A stretch of DNA of 33,600 nucleotides from Candidatus Dojkabacteria bacterium (GTDB lineage Bacteria > Patescibacteriota > Dojkabacteria > SC72): contig DUTP01000002.1 in NCBI GenBank assembly GCA_012842045.1, forward strand, positions 1 through 33,600. The letters run 5' to 3'. The notes beneath the pieces are model-generated. The model was given only the letters and a program-made list of their open reading frames with translations, did not search any database and was not told the origin of the DNA. Made by a program: the position numbers and the translations under genes. Positions 464-33,284 of the stretch are shown here, one piece after another (the stretch's first letter is position 1; every line of letters starts with the position of its first letter).

Positions 464-2198
<1,735 letters not shown>

Positions 2199-4693: not shown

Positions 4694-6112
4694 ATGTTGA
4701 AGGATTTTTTCATTCCAACAAAGAAGAATAGAAACAAGGCATACTTACTAAGCAAACCAGCAATAGTACTCTATACTCTTTTTCTTTTGTTAATTAACCA
4801 ATTTGGACCAATCTTTGGAATTAATCAGGCATATGCTAGTACTATAAACCAAGCCAATATCATATCCCTTACAAACCAAGAGAGAAGATTAGCAGGGTTG
4901 GGAGATTTGAAAAATAATCCTCAACTAGCATCTGCTGCACTAGCAAAAGCGAATGATATGTTTGCAAAACAGTACTGGGACCACTTTGGTCCAAATGGAG
5001 AGACACCATGGCAATTCATAAGAGCTGCAGGATATAACTATGTCTATGCTGGAGAAAATTTAGGAAAAGGTTTTAGAACAGCAGAAGGTTTGGTCGAAGC
5101 ATGGATGGCTAGTCCAACTCATAGGGAAAACATACTTAGTGCAAATTACAGAGATATAGGGATTGCAGTTGTAGAAGGGGAGCTCTTAGGTAAACAGACA
5201 ATACTTGTTGTTCAAATGTTTGGGAATCTTACAAGGTCAGTACAAGGAACTACCACATCAGAAGCGCCTAAACCAGTAGAAACGACTACACCTCCTACAC
5301 CTAAAAAAGTTGAAACAGGTAGCCAGAAAGTAGTAACACCAAAAGAACAGGGTGAAATAAGAAGTATTAGAATAACATCTCCAGGTATGGGTGAAGTGAT
5401 AACTGATCCTTCTGTCAATGTTAAGGGGGAAACAAAGAATACTACTGGAGAATATACAGTAAATATTTTAGAAAATGATGAAGTTGTAGGAAGTAGTAAT
5501 GCAACAGGTAGCACATGGGAAGTTGATAAAGATAGTGATTGGAGTGAAGGGGAGCATAAAATTATTGCTGTACTTAAAGATACTGAAGTCAAATCAGAGG
5601 AAAATACATTTATAATAGATTCTAAAGCTCCTGAAGTAGACCTCTCAACTTTGAAAGTTGTTGAGGACTCTGAAAATTTCACTTTAACTTTCAAAGTTAA
5701 GGGTGAGTGGGAAGAAGTAAATATAATAGTGGATTCTAATATCATTCTTGCTAATTCACCAATAGGGCAAGAGGATGTTGAGGTGACTATTCCCAAAGAA
5801 CCACATCCAACATCTGTATATATAAACTTATCAGACCATGTTGGTAACACCTCTAGTGTGGAAATAACAGAATATTTCCAAGTAAAAGAGAAAGAACAGG
5901 GAAACAAACTTCCAATCTTTTCTCTGTCTACCAGAGATGGTATAAATATCGGTATAGTTTCCTTTGTTCTTGTCTTATTAGTATTGAATGTCTTCTGGTT
6001 TATCAAGCAACGCAAATTTAAAGAATCAATAGGAGATGTCTTTACAGTTGGTGCATGGTGGATAATAGTAACTGTTTCGTTATTTACAGGTTTCTCAGGT
6101 TCTATAACATAA
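4694..6112 (+). CDS. Membrane-anchored CAP (SCP-like) domain protein with Pro/Thr linker, Ig-like domains and two C-terminal TM helices
   Basis: TNQERRLAGL, KANDMFAKQYWDH, AGENLGKG, WMASPTHRENIL. Start moved to ATG 4694, past the hup terminator; TATACT lies 5 nt upstream. Confidence 0.88.
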   Translation: MLKDFFIPTKKNRNKAYLLSKPAIVLYTLFLLLINQFGPIFGINQAYASTINQANIISLTNQERRLAGLGDLKNNPQLASAALAKANDMFAKQYWDHFGPNGETPWQFIRAAGYNYVYAGENLGKGFRTAEGLVEAWMASPTHRENILSANYRDIGIAVVEGELLGKQTILVVQMFGNLTRSVQGTTTSEAPKPVETTTPPTPKKVETGSQKVVTPKEQGEIRSIRITSPGMGEVITDPSVNVKGETKNTTGEYTVNILENDEVVGSSNATGSTWEVDKDSDWSEGEHKIIAVLKDTEVKSEENTFIIDSKAPEVDLSTLKVVEDSENFTLTFKVKGEWEEVNIIVDSNIILANSPIGQEDVEVTIPKEPHPTSVYINLSDHVGNTSSVEITEYFQVKEKEQGNKLPIFSLSTRDGINIGIVSFVLVLLVLNVFWFIKQRKFKESIGDVFTVGAWWIIVTVSLFTGFSGSIT

Positions 6113-28128: not shown

Positions 28129-28689
28129 ATGAGCATATTTGTTGGCTTTTTTCCAGATGATGAAATTAAAACAAAAATAGCTACTGTAGTAGTAGGTGTA
28201 AAGGATGTATTCAAAGATTTAGGAATTAATGTTAGATGGAGTGAAGCAGGAAAGTACCATGTAACATTACTTTTTCTTAGTGCTGATACGTCACCAATTA
28301 AATTACTGTATTACAAGTTTCTACTTAAAAAATTTAGTTTTAAGAAGTTTAAGATAAGATTTAATTCTATAAAGTTAGGTCTCTCAAGAAAATTTAGGCA
28401 ATTAATATATCTAGATTTATTGGAAGGTGGAGAGGAGATGAGAGGACTATATTTAACACTCAAAAAACTCTTGAAAAGTAAACAGGATATCAATTTCATT
28501 CCACACCTTACACTAGGAAGAGTAAATAAAGATGTATCACAGCAAGAATATTTGAATATAGTGAAAGATTTAAATGTTCTTACTAAAAAACTAAAAGTAA
28601 GTGATATCTCTTTTTCGGTGGATAGTATAGATTTAGTTAAATCACAGGATGGAAAGTATTCAGTTGAAATGAGCATTTCTAGTTCTTAG
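28129..28689 (+). CDS. thpR: RNA 2',3'-cyclic phosphodiesterase (LigT-like 2H family)
   Basis: Two HxT motifs: YHVTLLFL and FIPHLTLGR. Confidence 0.88.
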   Translation: MSIFVGFFPDDEIKTKIATVVVGVKDVFKDLGINVRWSEAGKYHVTLLFLSADTSPIKLLYYKFLLKKFSFKKFKIRFNSIKLGLSRKFRQLIYLDLLEGGEEMRGLYLTLKKLLKSKQDINFIPHLTLGRVNKDVSQQEYLNIVKDLNVLTKKLKVSDISFSVDSIDLVKSQDGKYSVEMSISSS

Positions 28690-29581
28690 GGATTAAGGTT
28701 TTCAAGAATATCTTTTGATTTTTAACATAGATAATATTTTTGTTTCTTCTAAACCAAGTTCTCTGTCTTTTAGCATACTGCTTTGTATGGGTAATTATAT
28801 CTTCCCTTATTTCATCCAAATCTTCTTTCTCTCTAAATTCCCTATATCCAATACTATTTAGAGCAGGATATATATCTAATCCTTCCTCTTTAATCTTTTG
28901 ATTCTCTTCAATTAGACCTGATTTGAACATTGCATCTACTCTTCTTACAATATTTTTCTCTAATTTATCTTTTGGTATATCTAAGAAAAAATATCTATGT
29001 TCTAACTCTGGACCTTTCTCAATACTAGGTAGAGACCCCTTAAGAATTATTTGAATTAATCTATGTGGGTTATTTTGATCACTGCTGTTTAATTTCGTTA
29101 ACTTCTCTTTTCCAACAATGTTTTGTAATTCTGTAATATCTAAATCTTCTAACTCACTTCTTTCTTTTCCCAAATTTTTCTCTTGTTCTTGAAGTTTGTA
29201 GTTAAAAACAACAGAATCTATGTATAGTCCTGTACCACCAACTAATATTGGTGTAATGTCTTCTGGTAATTCTTTTAGTATTTTAAAAACATCTTTCTGA
29301 TATCGATAGAGATTGTATTCTTCTTTTACACTAATGTACGAGTAGAGTAGGTGTGGAATGTTATCGATATACCAAATACCATTCCTTATTTCCTCAGGAA
29401 CAGGTTTTGCTGTACCAATAGAAATTTCTTTGTAGACCTGTCTTGAATCAGCATTGATGATAACTCCATTTATATGTTTTGCTAACTCTAAAGCAACAGA
29501 AGATTTTCCACTAGCTGTACATCCAGCAATCACAATTATTGGCTTTTTACGATATTCTGTTTGTTTTGAGACATTACCCAT
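28679..29581 (-). CDS. miaA: tRNA dimethylallyltransferase
   Basis: GCTASGKS, NADSRQVY, IGTAKP, VGGTGLY, IGYRE, YAKRQRTWF. Confidence 0.97.
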   Translation of the reverse strand: MGNVSKQTEYRKKPIIVIAGCTASGKSSVALELAKHINGVIINADSRQVYKEISIGTAKPVPEEIRNGIWYIDNIPHLLYSYISVKEEYNLYRYQKDVFKILKELPEDITPILVGGTGLYIDSVVFNYKLQEQEKNLGKERSELEDLDITELQNIVGKEKLTKLNSSDQNNPHRLIQIILKGSLPSIEKGPELEHRYFFLDIPKDKLEKNIVRRVDAMFKSGLIEENQKIKEEGLDIYPALNSIGYREFREKEDLDEIREDIITHTKQYAKRQRTWFRRNKNIIYVKNQKIFLKTLIPKN

Positions 29582-30098
29582 TTTTCTGTTTGAAAAAAAG
29601 TGGGAAAAGGAAGTAATTTACCCAAGTGGTAAGGATTATTATTACACTAGTAATCAAAATGAAAGTAGTAGCTGGTTGATTTAGGAAAAAGATTAGTGCA
29701 AGACTCATTAGAGTAACAAATATTGAGATTAAGAAAGAATCTTTTAGAAATTCTTTCTGTAATTTCTCAACATTGATGTTCTTCATCATTTTCTTTGATA
29801 TGAAAAATCCTACAGACATGCTGATATATATGAAGTTGATTACAAATACTATAATTGGGGTGAGTTGGAAGATATATGTGATTTGAATTTTGAAAATAAT
29901 ATTAGCTAGAAGGAGGACGAGTGTTGTGATAATGGTTGCTGCTGTAAATGAAGTGAGAGTGAAGAATATATACTTCTTGTTTCTTATCAATATCCAGATA
30001 CCTAGGAGAATGGCTGCTACTATGAGCAAGAACATTAAAGTTAAACTGATTTTTTGATACCAAGTCCAATTGTAAAATATATGTTTAAACATTCCCAT
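29574..30098 (-). CDS. secF: Truncated, divergent SecF-like membrane protein
   Basis: About 5 TM helices spaced like SecF TM2-TM6; LKDSFLIS...LALIFF...F...TWVNYFLFP aligns by eye with LSRSINTS...ALYFF...F...TYSSIFIA. Lies directly downstream of the secD-like gene. Confidence 0.55.
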   Translation of the reverse strand: MGMFKHIFYNWTWYQKISLTLMFLLIVAAILLGIWILIRNKKYIFFTLTSFTAATIITTLVLLLANIIFKIQITYIFQLTPIIVFVINFIYISMSVGFFISKKMMKNINVEKLQKEFLKDSFLISIFVTLMSLALIFFLNQPATTFILITSVIIILTTWVNYFLFPLFFKQKNG

Positions 30099-30109
30099 AT
30101 TATCTTTTT

Positions 30110-31357
30110 CTAAATTCTTTTAATATTATCTAAATACCAATCTGTGAGTAAGTAGGCTAGTTTTGAGAAAGCAATTAATGCAATCATTGCTTGAGCAAAG
30201 AGAGATAGGAAACCGGTACCTAAAAGTGCAATTATTCCAAAAACTACAACACCTCCAATAACTAGTAGTAACTCTGCATCTCTGTTCTCTACAATAGCAA
30301 GTATAAATATTGAAATTAGAACTAACTGTACTGCAAGTAGGAATGTATCAACAGGAATATGGGATAGTTTAAGGTATGAAAGGAAGAATGTAATTGTAAG
30401 TAGTGTTGTTAGGAATGATGTGATCAATGTCTTCTTGGATCGGTGTTTGAAGAGTAGGAGATAGAGATATGTTGTGATAATTGCAATACCGAAAGATAGA
30501 GTTAATTTAACATGGTCTAATTTAATCATATTAACATCTAAACTCTTCTCCCCTTGTACTGAATATTCAACAGGTATCTTACCAGATGTGTAAAGAATTC
30601 TAAGAGCTTTTGTTTCTTCTTCTGTTTCTGTATAGACAGGTATTGTAATATCTGGAGTAGCAGTCATTTCTTCTGAGAATTCAGGTACAAGGAAAGGTGT
30701 TACAAAGAAGTCAATTTGCATACCTACAATCTGTCCTTGATTTTCTTTAAGAAAAGTTCTTAACTCTTTATCTTTACTCTGTTTCTGTTTAAAAACTGCA
30801 AAGTATCTATATTCTCCATCATTTGTTCTAAGTTTGTTTTTCGGTATGTATACATTTCTAAACATATCCCAATCTAAATCTGTTGGATTGTAGTTCTCTC
30901 CAAATATTATGGCATATGGATTCTCCTCATCTTCGAAATTAACCTCATCTTTTCTAGTTACAATTTTGTAATAGTGTCTGGTTGATATTAATTGTTGAAC
31001 TAAGCTTTCTTCTTTTGAAGTGTTTACAGTAACCTTTAATATTGATGTTTCTTCATCTCCTTCCTCTGTTCGTATTGCAACTCTTTCGACACCAAATCTT
31101 TTTAATCTTCTAAAAAGAATTTCTTTTGTTTTATTTATATCTTTCTTTTCTTTTGTATCTAAGACAAGGTTATATTCCTTAGACCAGTATTTTGAATCTT
31201 TAGTGTTAAGATTGAAAGTTACTTTATCTGATATCTTTTCTGTAAGAGGTAGTGCTACAAGAAGAGATGTTATGAATATTGCTGAAAGTAGAGTAAGTAG
31301 AAAAGACTTTAAGAAAAGTTGCCAATTAGGTTTTTTAAATCGAATTTTCAATTTCAT
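30110..31357 (-). CDS. secD: Divergent SecD-like protein
   Basis: TM1, about 250-aa extracytoplasmic domain, 5 TMs. Landmarks: EILFRRLKRFGV (cf. IIERRVNxLGV), NQGQIVGMQID (cf. NVGKxxAIxLD), ALRILYTSGKIPV (cf. LAxxLxAGALPV), GTGFLSLFA (cf. GTGxVKGFA). Confidence 0.72.
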   Translation of the reverse strand: MKLKIRFKKPNWQLFLKSFLLTLLSAIFITSLLVALPLTEKISDKVTFNLNTKDSKYWSKEYNLVLDTKEKKDINKTKEILFRRLKRFGVERVAIRTEEGDEETSILKVTVNTSKEESLVQQLISTRHYYKIVTRKDEVNFEDEENPYAIIFGENYNPTDLDWDMFRNVYIPKNKLRTNDGEYRYFAVFKQKQSKDKELRTFLKENQGQIVGMQIDFFVTPFLVPEFSEEMTATPDITIPVYTETEEETKALRILYTSGKIPVEYSVQGEKSLDVNMIKLDHVKLTLSFGIAIITTYLYLLLFKHRSKKTLITSFLTTLLTITFFLSYLKLSHIPVDTFLLAVQLVLISIFILAIVENRDAELLLVIGGVVVFGIIALLGTGFLSLFAQAMIALIAFSKLAYLLTDWYLDNIKRI

Positions 31358-31359
31358 TT

Positions 31360-31935
31360 CTAGAGTAGGTCAGCTATCTGTCCAAAGAGAACAATTTTAT
31401 CATTTTCAAGGACATTTATTAAGAAAGGTTCTTTTTTCTTTCTAGCAAAGTCAAAATCTTGTTTTGTAATTGCACTAAAGCGTAAATTTCTATCTAAGTC
31501 TTTCTCTAGTTGCACAACTGCAGCTAGTAACTCTTTTACTTTCATTGTACCTATGAACAAGAAGTCTATATCTGTATCTTCTTCGTGTTTTTTGTTTTTG
31601 ATAAAGTTGTCAGTGAGAACGATTACCTCTATCCCTTCAATGTCTTTTGTGATATCTAAAATAGCTTTGCCAACTTTAGATTCTTTATAGAAAATAGCTC
31701 TTAAATCCCAAAGGATAGGGCACTGTTTGTTTACTCTGTATACAACCTTGTTCCCTTCTTTCTTTGATTTGAGAATGCCTGCCTTTTCTAGGTTAATTAA
31801 TTCTCTTCTTACAGCATTAATCTCTTCATCTAGTAATCTAACCAAAGCTCTTACATGATATGCAGAATCAATATTAGACATATACACATCTAATATGCTA
31901 ATTCTCACTTTAGAAATGAAAAGGTTCTTTAACAT
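31360..31935 (-). CDS. Winged-HTH regulator fused to a degenerate nucleotidyltransferase-like domain
   Basis: LFISKVRISIL, HVRALVR...EINAVRRELINLEKAGIL; C-terminal DIDFLFIG without the GS motif. Confidence 0.8.
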   Translation of the reverse strand: MLKNLFISKVRISILDVYMSNIDSAYHVRALVRLLDEEINAVRRELINLEKAGILKSKKEGNKVVYRVNKQCPILWDLRAIFYKESKVGKAILDITKDIEGIEVIVLTDNFIKNKKHEEDTDIDFLFIGTMKVKELLAAVVQLEKDLDRNLRFSAITKQDFDFARKKKEPFLINVLENDKIVLFGQIADLL

Positions 31936-31955: not shown

Positions 31956-33233
31956 TTACTGCTCTATTATATCAAATTTCCCATCAGATTGGGAAATGGC
32001 AGCAATCCATATTCTTCCTCTGTTAAATTTCATTGGTGCGCCAGAGCTGTCAAAAAACTGAGTTCTTTCTGTTCTAGAACCTTTTTTCCACTTACCATTA
32101 ATAACTTTTCCATCTAGAAGGTAAACAGCATCTCCTTGTGATATTGTATCTATCACTATTCTTGCAGTACCATCAGTAGATGGACGAGTATTTACTTTTT
32201 GTATTATTACATTCTTTGCATAAACCTGTGAGTTTGTTTCTTGATCAGCATCTATTACTCCACCAATCTTTCGTAAATATGAATTTGTGTCAGGGTCATA
32301 TGTCCATATGGCATCATATTTTCCTGAATTATTTAATCTCATATGGAATACAGTCTTAACCATTGTTTTCTTTCCTCGTTCTTCATTTTTGGCATCATTT
32401 TTAAATTCATATCCTTTTATATCAGGGAAAGAATCCCAATTTTGTCTCTTAGCATACTCCCAAGCATTCTTGATAGAGTTATATTCGTTATGAGGAGCAT
32501 ATCTTCTTCCATCATTCCATCTCCATGCTCCAATTGTTGAAATATCTTTAATCCCATATGCTCCAACATTTCCACAGGCATTTGCTCTTGGGTCTGTACT
32601 CTCAGCACAACCATCCCTTATCAGTAGAGGGTCATATTCACTTGCCCATTCCAAGTAGTATTGTCTGAGACTTCTTACTGGGCCAACTTTCTCTGGAGCA
32701 GAACTCCAAAATATTCCTAAATATCTAGTAATACCTGCTTCTGCGTTGGTTTCATAGACGATATCTGCACTGTTTAAACCAGATTGTGGTCTAGCTTCAG
32801 AATGATTATTAATCATCACTGCAACAGGTCTTCTTTTCTTTAGTACATCCATCTCTTTTTTTGTAAAGAGTAGTCCATTTAGTGGACTTTCTTCTGTTTT
32901 GGGTTCTTTGGGTTGTGAAAGTAATGGAAGCTTTCTTTTTGAAGAATCTGATTGCGATATTATGTATCTAGAATTAAACTTTATTACATTAGAAGGATGT
33001 GTTGGTTTTAATTTGTATATTCCAAAGTAGTAAAAAGCTACAATTCCTACCAGTGTTAAAATTGCAACAAGAGGAAAAGCAACTTTTCTAAGTATTGGGT
33101 GTTTCTGTTTTTTCTCTTCAGTCTTTTTTTTCTCTACATCTTTTTGAGGTTTTGTAGTAACAGTTTCAGTCTTGTTTTTACCAATGTTATTATCGACTTC
33201 TTTTCCATCTACTATTTCAACAACTTTTGCCAT
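31956..33233 (-). CDS. DUF3048 domain membrane-anchored protein
   Basis: SPLNG, RPVAVMINNHSEARPQSGLNSADIVYE, EAGITR, GPVRSLR, APHN, GRIWI. Start set at MAKV (33233). Confidence 0.92.
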   Translation of the reverse strand: MAKVVEIVDGKEVDNNIGKNKTETVTTKPQKDVEKKKTEEKKQKHPILRKVAFPLVAILTLVGIVAFYYFGIYKLKPTHPSNVIKFNSRYIISQSDSSKRKLPLLSQPKEPKTEESPLNGLLFTKKEMDVLKKRRPVAVMINNHSEARPQSGLNSADIVYETNAEAGITRYLGIFWSSAPEKVGPVRSLRQYYLEWASEYDPLLIRDGCAESTDPRANACGNVGAYGIKDISTIGAWRWNDGRRYAPHNEYNSIKNAWEYAKRQNWDSFPDIKGYEFKNDAKNEERGKKTMVKTVFHMRLNNSGKYDAIWTYDPDTNSYLRKIGGVIDADQETNSQVYAKNVIIQKVNTRPSTDGTARIVIDTISQGDAVYLLDGKVINGKWKKGSRTERTQFFDSSGAPMKFNRGRIWIAAISQSDGKFDIIEQ

Positions 33234-33239
33234 ATGAAT

Positions 33240-33284
33240 ATAGTAGCACAAATGTTTGGTATTTCAAATGGATTGTGCTACTAT
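33240..33284. promoter_or_regulatory. Symmetric divergent promoter pair (12-bp perfect inverted repeat)
   Basis: ATAGTAGCACAA (33240-33251) / TTGTGCTACTAT (33273-33284). Each arm is an extended -10 (TG-C-TACTAT) facing outward. Confidence 0.7.

Follow-up and report, generated by a model that had tools for sequence, protein, structure and literature searches.

Canonical SecDF is built from SecD, with a first transmembrane (TM) helix, a large periplasmic P1 domain of head and base and five further TM helices, and SecF, with six TM helices and the P4 domain between TM7 and TM8. It has been described as being among the smallest proton-driven motors, and residues D340, D637 and R671 of the Thermus thermophilus protein as essential, in the sections of PMC5974789 on which we draw. 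In the portions at hand, surveys of the candidate phyla radiation (CPR) report SecD and SecF by annotation only, and PMC12992588, PMC9166423 and PMC7143001 contain no description of a SecDF that lacks the Asp/Asp/Arg triad or the P4 domain. Here we describe a pair of genes from Candidatus Dojkabacteria (assembly GCA_012842045.1, contig DUTP01000002.1) that lacks both. They lie in a stretch of 33,600 nucleotides (nt), which as a whole we call the window, and encode proteins of 415 and 174 amino acids (aa). The best-supported reading of our results is that the pair is this lineage's own strongly reduced, orthologous SecDF, in which P1 is the selected part.

A sequence-only reading of the same DNA had proposed a derivation from SecDF, which Foldseek, hhalign, superpositions with VIA, gene position and a predicted complex all bear out. 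The intact open reading frames (ORFs), the lengths, the 8-nt overlap between the 174-aa ORF and miaA and the motifs that it quoted are all present in the window. The features on which the argument rests are as follows.

30110..31357, minus strand: SecD-derived protein, 415 aa (ORF, AlphaFold2, Foldseek, VIA, hhalign)
29574..30098, minus strand: SecF-derived core, 174 aa (AlphaFold2, VIA, locus context, predicted complex)
30539..31186, minus strand: P1-like periplasmic domain, residues 58-273 of the 415-aa protein (VIA against 3aqo_C)
30287..30346, minus strand: TM4 of the 415-aa protein, residues 338-357, TFLLAVQLVLISIFILAIVE (translation)
30326-30328, minus strand: Gln344 codon of the 415-aa protein
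29739..29741, minus strand: Asp120 codon of the 174-aa protein
29835..29837, minus strand: Asn88 codon of the 174-aa protein, in its third TM helix

The 415-aa protein is a SecD homologue beyond the reach of family models, because the comparisons of fold (Foldseek, VIA) and profile (hhalign) agree. Its AlphaFold2 model (predicted local distance difference test, pLDDT, 88.3; predicted template modelling score, pTM, 0.79) has the SecD layout, with TM1 at residues 12-35, a periplasmic domain at 58-273 and five helices, TM2-TM6, at 282-414. A Foldseek search with this model returns SecDF at ranks 1-9 (best E 2.9e-13), followed by AcrB-type pumps. With VIA, residues 58-273 superpose on the P1 domain of T. 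thermophilus SecDF (3aqo_C, residues 41-262) at Z 18.6, where no other chain exceeds 13.7, with a root-mean-square deviation (rmsd) of 3.0 Å, 198 of 222 residues aligned and 18% identity. The whole chain superposes on 5yhf over 370 residues (Z 13.1, rmsd 4.9). At the level of profiles, hhalign matches the family of the 415-aa protein to the canonical SecD of sibling families (nine proteins of the same GTDB class) with a probability of 97.4% and E 9.3e-12 over 313 columns; in this alignment a cytoplasmic helix of about 25 residues between TM4 and TM5 is deleted from the 415-aa protein. The earlier claim of SecD topology and P1 landmarks without the GLDLxGG motif is upheld by the model, the P1 superposition and a check of the motif, whose region reads FNLNTKD in the window and in the family consensus, as opposed to LGLDLKGG in sibling SecD.

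None of this is visible to curated families. Scans of both window proteins against Pfam and NCBIfam gave no SecD or SecF model at E<=1, the 415-aa protein being recognized neither by PF02355 (SecD_SecF_C) nor by the NCBIfam SecD model, and Pfam matches are also missing in distant members of its family. At E<=0.001 the protein has 80 relatives of 383-431 aa, none of which carries a precomputed Pfam domain; three of them have been named SecD, by one source. A family profile built from the window protein and 69 relatives, after 11 near-duplicates were dropped, has no match among PDB sequences at E<=10. Against 1.84 billion representatives it has 92 matches, all within its own family, so that canonical SecD is not reached; fused SecD-SecF forms are absent from these 92, the longest of which has 547 aa. 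Two members of the family are unusual. At locus L045 (3335-4855, plus strand) a single ORF of 506 aa spans the neighbouring winged helix-turn-helix (wHTH) gene into the SecD-like gene, and its match to the window protein starts at residue 132, with TM1 and the start of P1 seemingly gone; a genuine deletion or fusion would explain this, but so would an assembly error. Genome G094 has two full-length SecD-like copies on separate contigs (C26:929-2131 and C1:107855-109060), possibly from a duplication or a mixed bin.

Conservation is distributed unusually in this family, with the P1-like domain as the best conserved part of the 415-aa protein. Mean pairwise identity in the window's family is 0.45 for P1 and 0.40 for TM2-6, with 29 of 216 and 10 of 133 columns conserved at 90% or more; in canonical sibling SecD it is 0.49 for P1 and 0.65 for TM2-6 (0.72 for TM4-5), with 34 of 233 and 59 of 153 such columns. 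The membrane part is less conserved than P1 in the window's family, the reverse of canonical SecD, and as the two alignments differ in depth it is the contrast within each that is meaningful.

Both genes are clearly under purifying selection. Ratios of nonsynonymous to synonymous substitution rates (dN/dS), calculated by the Nei-Gojobori method between the window and locus L002 (73% identical) and rough because dS is saturated (1.3-3.1), are 0.12 for the SecD-like gene and 0.06 for its partner; miaA gives 0.13, the wHTH gene 0.03 and the gene of the DUF3048 protein 0.08. Neutral evolution beside an intact secDF, which the sequence-only reading had considered, disagrees with these values, and no intact secDF was found elsewhere.

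The 174-aa partner is recognizable by fold and context alone. Its AlphaFold2 model (pLDDT 88.0, pTM 0.81) is without an extracytoplasmic domain and consists of a short N-terminal helix and TM helices at 13-38, 41-68, 75-103, 110-136 and 141-169. The short periplasmic N-terminus carries Trp11, and TM7 and P4 are missing, so the protein has neither the six helices of SecF with P4 between TM7 and TM8 nor a match to a SecF model. Its acidic residues are one Asp (D120, within K119-D120-S121) and two Glu (E111 and E116), and His-Asp is absent from it. When the model was compared with 48,161 chains by VIA, ranks 1-25 were all RND (resistance-nodulation-division) or sterol-sensing modules (Z 9.4-14.2, 158-172 residues aligned), with unrelated folds from Z 9.0 downwards. 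Residues 441-608 of E. coli SecD (Z 12.0) and 263-429 of T. thermophilus SecDF (Z 10.4) are among these 25, and rows less than 1 Z apart are ties. Together with the predicted complex described below, these superpositions make it a five-helix bundle of the RND type that pairs with a SecD half.

At the level of sequence profiles, hhalign gave a non-significant probability of 1.4% between the 174-aa family and canonical SecF, and of 0.3% between the 174-aa and 415-aa families. Foldseek found nothing for the model at E<=0.001 (best E 0.48). In the ESM Atlas all scores are below 0.9 and the clusters include SecD_SecF_C, MMPL and Patched, which is a lead only. The partner had earlier been likened to TM2-TM6 of a SecF without TM1 or an extracytoplasmic domain; the five helices and the missing P4 of the model agree with this, but the likeness has no counterpart in sequence or profile.

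A word-based search for homologues of the 174-aa protein gave three close relatives only, and partner sequences were therefore drawn from genome loci. In 40 of 48 related loci the next gene after the SecD-like one encodes 169-177 aa and either overlaps it by 4 nt or lies 1-11 nt past its stop codon, apart from one gap of 138 nt. This gap is at locus L009 (4853-5374), where the partner is full-length. Among the remaining eight loci, five contigs end early, two have no complete SecD-like ORF and one, L017, has an ORF of 115 aa (4900-5247) that begins 166 nt downstream and is perhaps a truncated partner. Trp11 and Asp120 are invariant in the resulting alignment of 41 rows.

The 174-aa protein is predicted to bind the 415-aa protein. 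Three runs gave values of 0.78, 0.77 and 0.77 for the interaction prediction score from aligned errors (ipSAE), compared with 0.00 for the best control; at least 94% of the contacts are common to the runs and the pLDDT of the partner is at least 79. By rough counts, for which own alignments were used, 116 of 157 solved complexes attain the same mark, as do 2 of 215 mismatched pairs. In the predicted interface TM4 (residues 347, 350, 351 and 354) packs against the third helix of the partner (83-90), much like TM4 and TM10 of RND proteins; residues 353-361 of the 415-aa protein touch K119 and residues 122-124 of the partner. The N-terminus (10-15) and outer loops of the partner rest on the base of P1 (75-96), and for this reason a topology with the N-terminus out and the C-terminus in, equivalent to TM8-12, fits the model. 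These models show the loss of TM7 and P4, and the best explanation of them is a membrane core of 11 helices (SecD TM1-6 and a bundle resembling TM8-12) with P1 as its single periplasmic domain.

What has become of the proton relay? The SecD and SecF of sibling families keep GMAVDAN, SVHDT and LxRS intact, and HMMER alignments to 3aqp map these motifs to D340, D637 and R671. In the window, residues 344-359 of the 415-aa protein read QLVLISIFILAIVENR, and the sole carboxylate of TM4 (338-357) is Glu357, the residue with which the helix ends on the cytoplasmic side. Extension of the hhalign block places the canonical TM4 Asp opposite Ile348, in a column that is T, I, V, A or M in the family; there is thus no counterpart of D340. 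The 174-aa protein lacks counterparts of the TM10 Asp (D637) and the TM11 Arg (R671): no acidic residue occurs in its third helix, and its only Arg, R39, is in the loop between the first two TM helices. The triad is therefore absent from both window proteins, as the sequence-only reading had said. Its claim of KDS at the Arg position stands in part. Asp120, where the fourth TM helix begins on the cytoplasmic side, is as far from the end of the hydrophobic span as R671 is, and a non-significant hhalign alignment pairs it with the canonical TM11 Arg; it lies at or near that position, but the exact register could be one turn off. In this alternative register Asp120 would mate with the [KR]-[DE]-S motif at residues 359-361, placed by hhalign opposite the canonical RDSN motif.

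The distribution of the pair was studied in a sample of 101 genomes of the GTDB class, comprising its own genome, 18 others of the same family (f1) and 82 from other families. The family profile matches its own genome, all 18 of the other f1 genomes and none of the 82. Canonical SecD and SecF pairs, detected by SecD_SecF_C, occur in families f6 (9/9 genomes), f9 (1/1), f14 (3/3) and f18 (2/2) and in none of the 19 f1 genomes; many families of the class have no detectable SecDF. In the pair's own genome (736,648 bp, 6 contigs, 93% complete) PF02355 yields one chance match of 12.2 bits, rejected as SecD or SecF since it lies inside rpoB. A PF02355 match in genome G021 was likewise rejected as an intermediate SecF. 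It belongs to an AcrB-like RND gene (L067, 2602-5324, minus strand) split into parts of 541 aa and 213 aa by a gap of 455 nt, probably a broken efflux pump.

Gene order ties the pair to canonical secDF. Three neighbours complete the locus.

31956-33251, minus strand: DUF3048 protein (ORF list, Pfam)
31360..31935, minus strand: wHTH-like protein, 191 aa (weak Pfam wHTH matches, PaaX / HVO_A0114)
28679..29581, minus strand: miaA, tRNA isopentenyltransferase (Pfam IPPT, E 7.9e-46)

The stop codon of the wHTH gene is followed after 2 nt by the start of the 415-aa ORF, and a spacer of 11 nt separates this from the 174-aa ORF. The row DUF3048-wHTH-D-F-miaA is kept in practically all f1 loci that are long enough, and miaA lies downstream in each related locus whose contig extends to it. 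The 191-aa wHTH gene is a single-copy gene in 100 of the 101 genomes. Its homologue lies immediately upstream of canonical secD at L056, L058 and L059, and coordinates put it in this position in 7 of 9 f6 genomes. In f18 and f9 it shares the strand of secD at a distance of 1.6-3.7 kb, and in f14 the two are unlinked. Because this wHTH-linked order is common to f1 and canonical loci, the window pair occupies the former position of secDF and is its positional orthologue. The repurposed paralog that the sequence-only reading offered as an option is not supported, the pair being the only copy and standing in secDF's place behind the wHTH gene. As a side observation, the wHTH protein, which often adjoins secD or its derivative, could be either a conserved regulator or a protein that partners the export genes.

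We inspected the region downstream of the wHTH gene in 13 other families, and two of these, each represented by one genome, hold comparable pairs. In f4 (L075) two small genes are inserted behind the wHTH gene, and after them come genes for proteins of 468 aa and 205 aa. The larger of these has a strong match to canonical SecD (hhalign 100%, E 2.5e-43) and retains GLELGGG, with Arg aligned to the TM4 Asp. In f2 (L071) the order is the same as in the window, with the wHTH gene, a 401-aa protein, a 208-aa protein and miaA, and the 401-aa protein has a weak hhalign match to the window's family (94%, E 1.4e-7). The partners in f4 and f2 gave no significant hhalign match. No membrane-protein pair of comparable size and topology was found behind the wHTH gene in the remaining eleven families. 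In several families the wHTH gene is followed by one or two small genes whose N-terminus resembles 'YKVWL.Q..D..AAK' (L075, 141 + 124 aa, 679-1421, plus strand; L073, 142 + 119 aa; L072, 267 aa; L079, 260 aa). Those of f4, which sit between the wHTH gene and the SecD-like gene, look by eye like a HEPN/nucleotidyltransferase-type pair.

The energetic context of the pair is also reduced. SecY, SecA and YidC are present in its own genome, whereas no YajC was detected in any of the 101. ATP synthase subunit c occurs in 43 and subunit a in 47 of the 101, the model for subunit c also matching archaeal control genomes. Neither subunit is found in the pair's own genome, in the 18 other f1 genomes or in the single f2 and f4 genomes. 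The sole ATP-synt_ab match of its own genome was rejected as an ATPase, being Rho, cut by the contig end, and neither H+-PPase, P-type ATPase nor Na+/H+ exchanger was found there. Canonical secDF, yajC and ATP synthase, for which the sequence-only reading had suggested a check, were thus found neither in this genome nor in its 18 sampled relatives, which supports that reading. An AI-2E-family transporter and ComEC are also encoded.

Public sequencing runs give an impression of where the organism lives. DNA nearly identical to 28679-31935 is present in 18 runs (at least half of the sampled words), two of which may be the source sample. These are mostly metagenomes of anaerobic digesters, biogas fermenters, manure and bioreactors, the rest being labelled plainly 'metagenome' or not at all. 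At least part of the region is found in 20 runs from 11 studies. The habitats fit an anaerobic, fermentative life of the organism. None of the runs listed for 28679-31935 was of RNA. Of two runs recorded as RNA, X21 contains a contig of 189 nt over 30318-30504 at 90-95% identity, which is not proof of transcription; runs X19 and X20 are probably DNA, and X22 gave no sequence over the region.

How might a SecDF of this kind work? Fold, profile and gene position show that the 415-aa protein is of SecD ancestry, and we lean, by a small measure, towards the view that the SecDF of the window's clade operates with no flow of ions and serves as a catch or ratchet next to SecYEG. A SecDF-like complex would remain next to SecYEG and YidC. 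P1 would catch the polypeptide that leaves the channel and hinder its sliding back, the canonical proton-driven power stroke would not be used, and SecA and thermal motion would do the work. The membrane core would be mainly an anchor and docking surface. Judged from the residues, ion-independence of the window pair, which the sequence-only reading had proposed, is plausible.

A wider form of this idea is more tentative, and we would put it at somewhat less than an even chance: that the pair is a natural SecDF without any ion flow, that P1 is separable from the RND proton motor and that the class records a stepwise dismantling of this motor. The series would run from canonical SecDF to the f4 form, in which P1 is still whole but another residue stands for the TM4 Asp and P4 is gone, then to the f2 form and to f1, where TM7 would have been lost too and, in the window's clade, Gln would have taken the place of the last TM4 carboxylate. 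Bolder still is the idea that most f1 members run on a polarity-swapped pair of Arg/Lys353 and Asp120.

Several observations weigh against an uncoupled SecDF. The word 'uncoupled' itself rests on missing residues and context, the genome in which pumps were sought is 93% complete, the partner shows no significant profile match to SecF, and the RND-like packing in the complex was perhaps reproduced from the memory of the predictor. Because a Na+/Pi-cotransporter-family protein and MurJ are encoded in the genome, the organism probably maintains an ion gradient or membrane potential of some kind. The association of relay loss with loss of ion machinery, for which the sequence-only reading had suggested a test across CPR, is suggestive but not clean. 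ATPase subunits a and c were found in none of the 19 f1 genomes and are both present in 13 of the 15 genomes with canonical SecDF, the exceptions being one f6 genome and G008 of family f9. The latter (97% complete, one contig) has a triad-bearing SecDF and no detected subunit a or c, so ATPase loss does not force loss of the relay. Several families have an ATPase and no detectable SecDF, and, the genomes being related and hence not independent, what is seen comes down to one or a few events.

Could the pair then still be an ion-driven motor with a rebuilt site? Such a site would be made up of Asp120 and of polar residues from TM4 and from the third helix of the partner, with Glu344 in most relatives and Gln344, Asn88 and Ser in the window, and the ion could be Na+ instead of H+. 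Na+-driven SecDF is known in Vibrio, and the Na+/Pi-cotransporter-family gene would suit this. We counted the relevant residues in 41 genome-derived pairs and placed them on a quick maximum-likelihood tree with a midpoint root. Besides the invariant Asp120 (41/41), Glu116 and Lys106 of the partner are each kept in 39 pairs, and 27 pairs, which fall on either side of the root, have Glu or Asp at position 344. Exactly the four pairs with Thr, Ser or Cys at 344 carry Glu88 in the partner; they are a sister clade of the window and look like a relocation of a needed carboxylate. Position 353 is Arg or Lys in 31 pairs, and the predicted interface would allow Arg/Lys353-Asp120 in place of Asp(TM4)-Arg(TM11). 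The pattern over the family looks like a maintained non-canonical ion site that has been neutralised in some members only, including the window, and this too counts against an uncoupled SecDF. For the window pair itself the case is poorer. It has Gln344 (as do six pairs, including its clade), Asn88 and Leu353, so that only Asp120 is left of the site. Ten pairs have no acid at 344 or 88, which takes at least three state changes on the tree, the move to Glu88 happened just once in evolution, TM2-6 is less conserved than P1, and the genome yielded no primary pump for H+ or Na+. On balance we regard a rebuilt motor as unlikely, if well worth keeping in mind.

A departure from export seems to us quite improbable. 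The pair would in that case be another RND-type device, moving a lipid or envelope component, or a sensor of the sterol-sensing kind. The best VIA matches of the partner are indeed NPC1, MmpL3, NCR1 and AcrB (Z 12.7-14.2), above SecD and SecDF (10.4-12.0), the canonical SecDF motifs are gone, and SecDF goes undetected in many families of the class and is hence dispensable there. But all these matches are one TM module, with ties among neighbouring rows, the extracytoplasmic domain is specifically that of SecD P1 and the part that is best conserved, the gene position is that of secDF, and the operon holds no partner genes for envelope-lipid export. That the genes are functionless, decaying relics is harder still to believe. 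All family motifs have been lost and divergence is fast, with 42-54% identity within the genus, but the ORFs are intact and constant in length throughout the 19 family genomes and in 46 of 48 loci, the dN/dS values resemble that of miaA (a rough comparison, dS being saturated), 18 columns are invariant over 70 sequences and the alignments yield confident AlphaFold2 models.

If the pair is a reduced, orthologous SecDF, as we think best supported, it has some wider meaning. A conserved and selected SecDF without the triad, TM7 and P4 would be a natural minimal version that shows which parts are dispensable, and the window pair would be a test case for P1-aided export without ion flow. Standard family models score these genomes as free of SecDF, which skews inventories of the Sec system in candidate-phyla bacteria. 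The pair may also illustrate how the remodelling of a membrane motor is tied to life without recognisable ion pumps in organisms of anaerobic digesters.

Among known systems, the closest is canonical SecDF (T. thermophilus 3aqp, 3aqo and 5yhf; D. radiodurans 5xan; E. coli SecD and SecF in 5mg3). The window pair shares with it the TM1-P1-TM2-6 layout of SecD, the RND-type packing of TM4 on the central helix of the partner (predicted in the window), the operon of two genes and a genome with SecY, SecA and YidC. Unlike it, the pair has no family-model match, no GLDLxGG, no equivalents of Asp340, Asp637 and Arg671 and no cytoplasmic helix of about 25 residues between TM4 and TM5; the partner has 174 aa, compared with about 300 in SecF, and no TM7 or P4, which gives the pair 11 TM helices instead of 12. 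The SecDF of sibling families (L050-L062; SecD of 449-515 aa, SecF of 294-309 aa) belongs to the same class, has the wHTH gene beside secD and is related by profile (hhalign 97.4%). It differs in keeping LGLDLKGG, GMAVDAN, SVHDT and LxRS, in having the TM part most conserved and in the presence of ATPase a and c in 13 of 15 genomes.

The f4 and f2 forms resemble the window in their place behind the wHTH gene, in a short partner without a P4-sized domain and in that ATPase a and c were not found, and f2 is also followed by miaA. The f4 form is unlike the window in its strong match to canonical SecD, its GLELGGG and the Arg at the TM4 Asp, and the f2 form in that its match to the window's family is weak. 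Lastly, AcrB, MmpL3, HpnN, NPC1, Patched and Dispatched superpose on the 174-aa bundle and on TM2-6 of the 415-aa protein (Z 9.4-14.2). These RND and sterol-sensing modules have relay residues of their own and other extracytoplasmic domains, whereas the P1 domain of the window has the fold of SecD.

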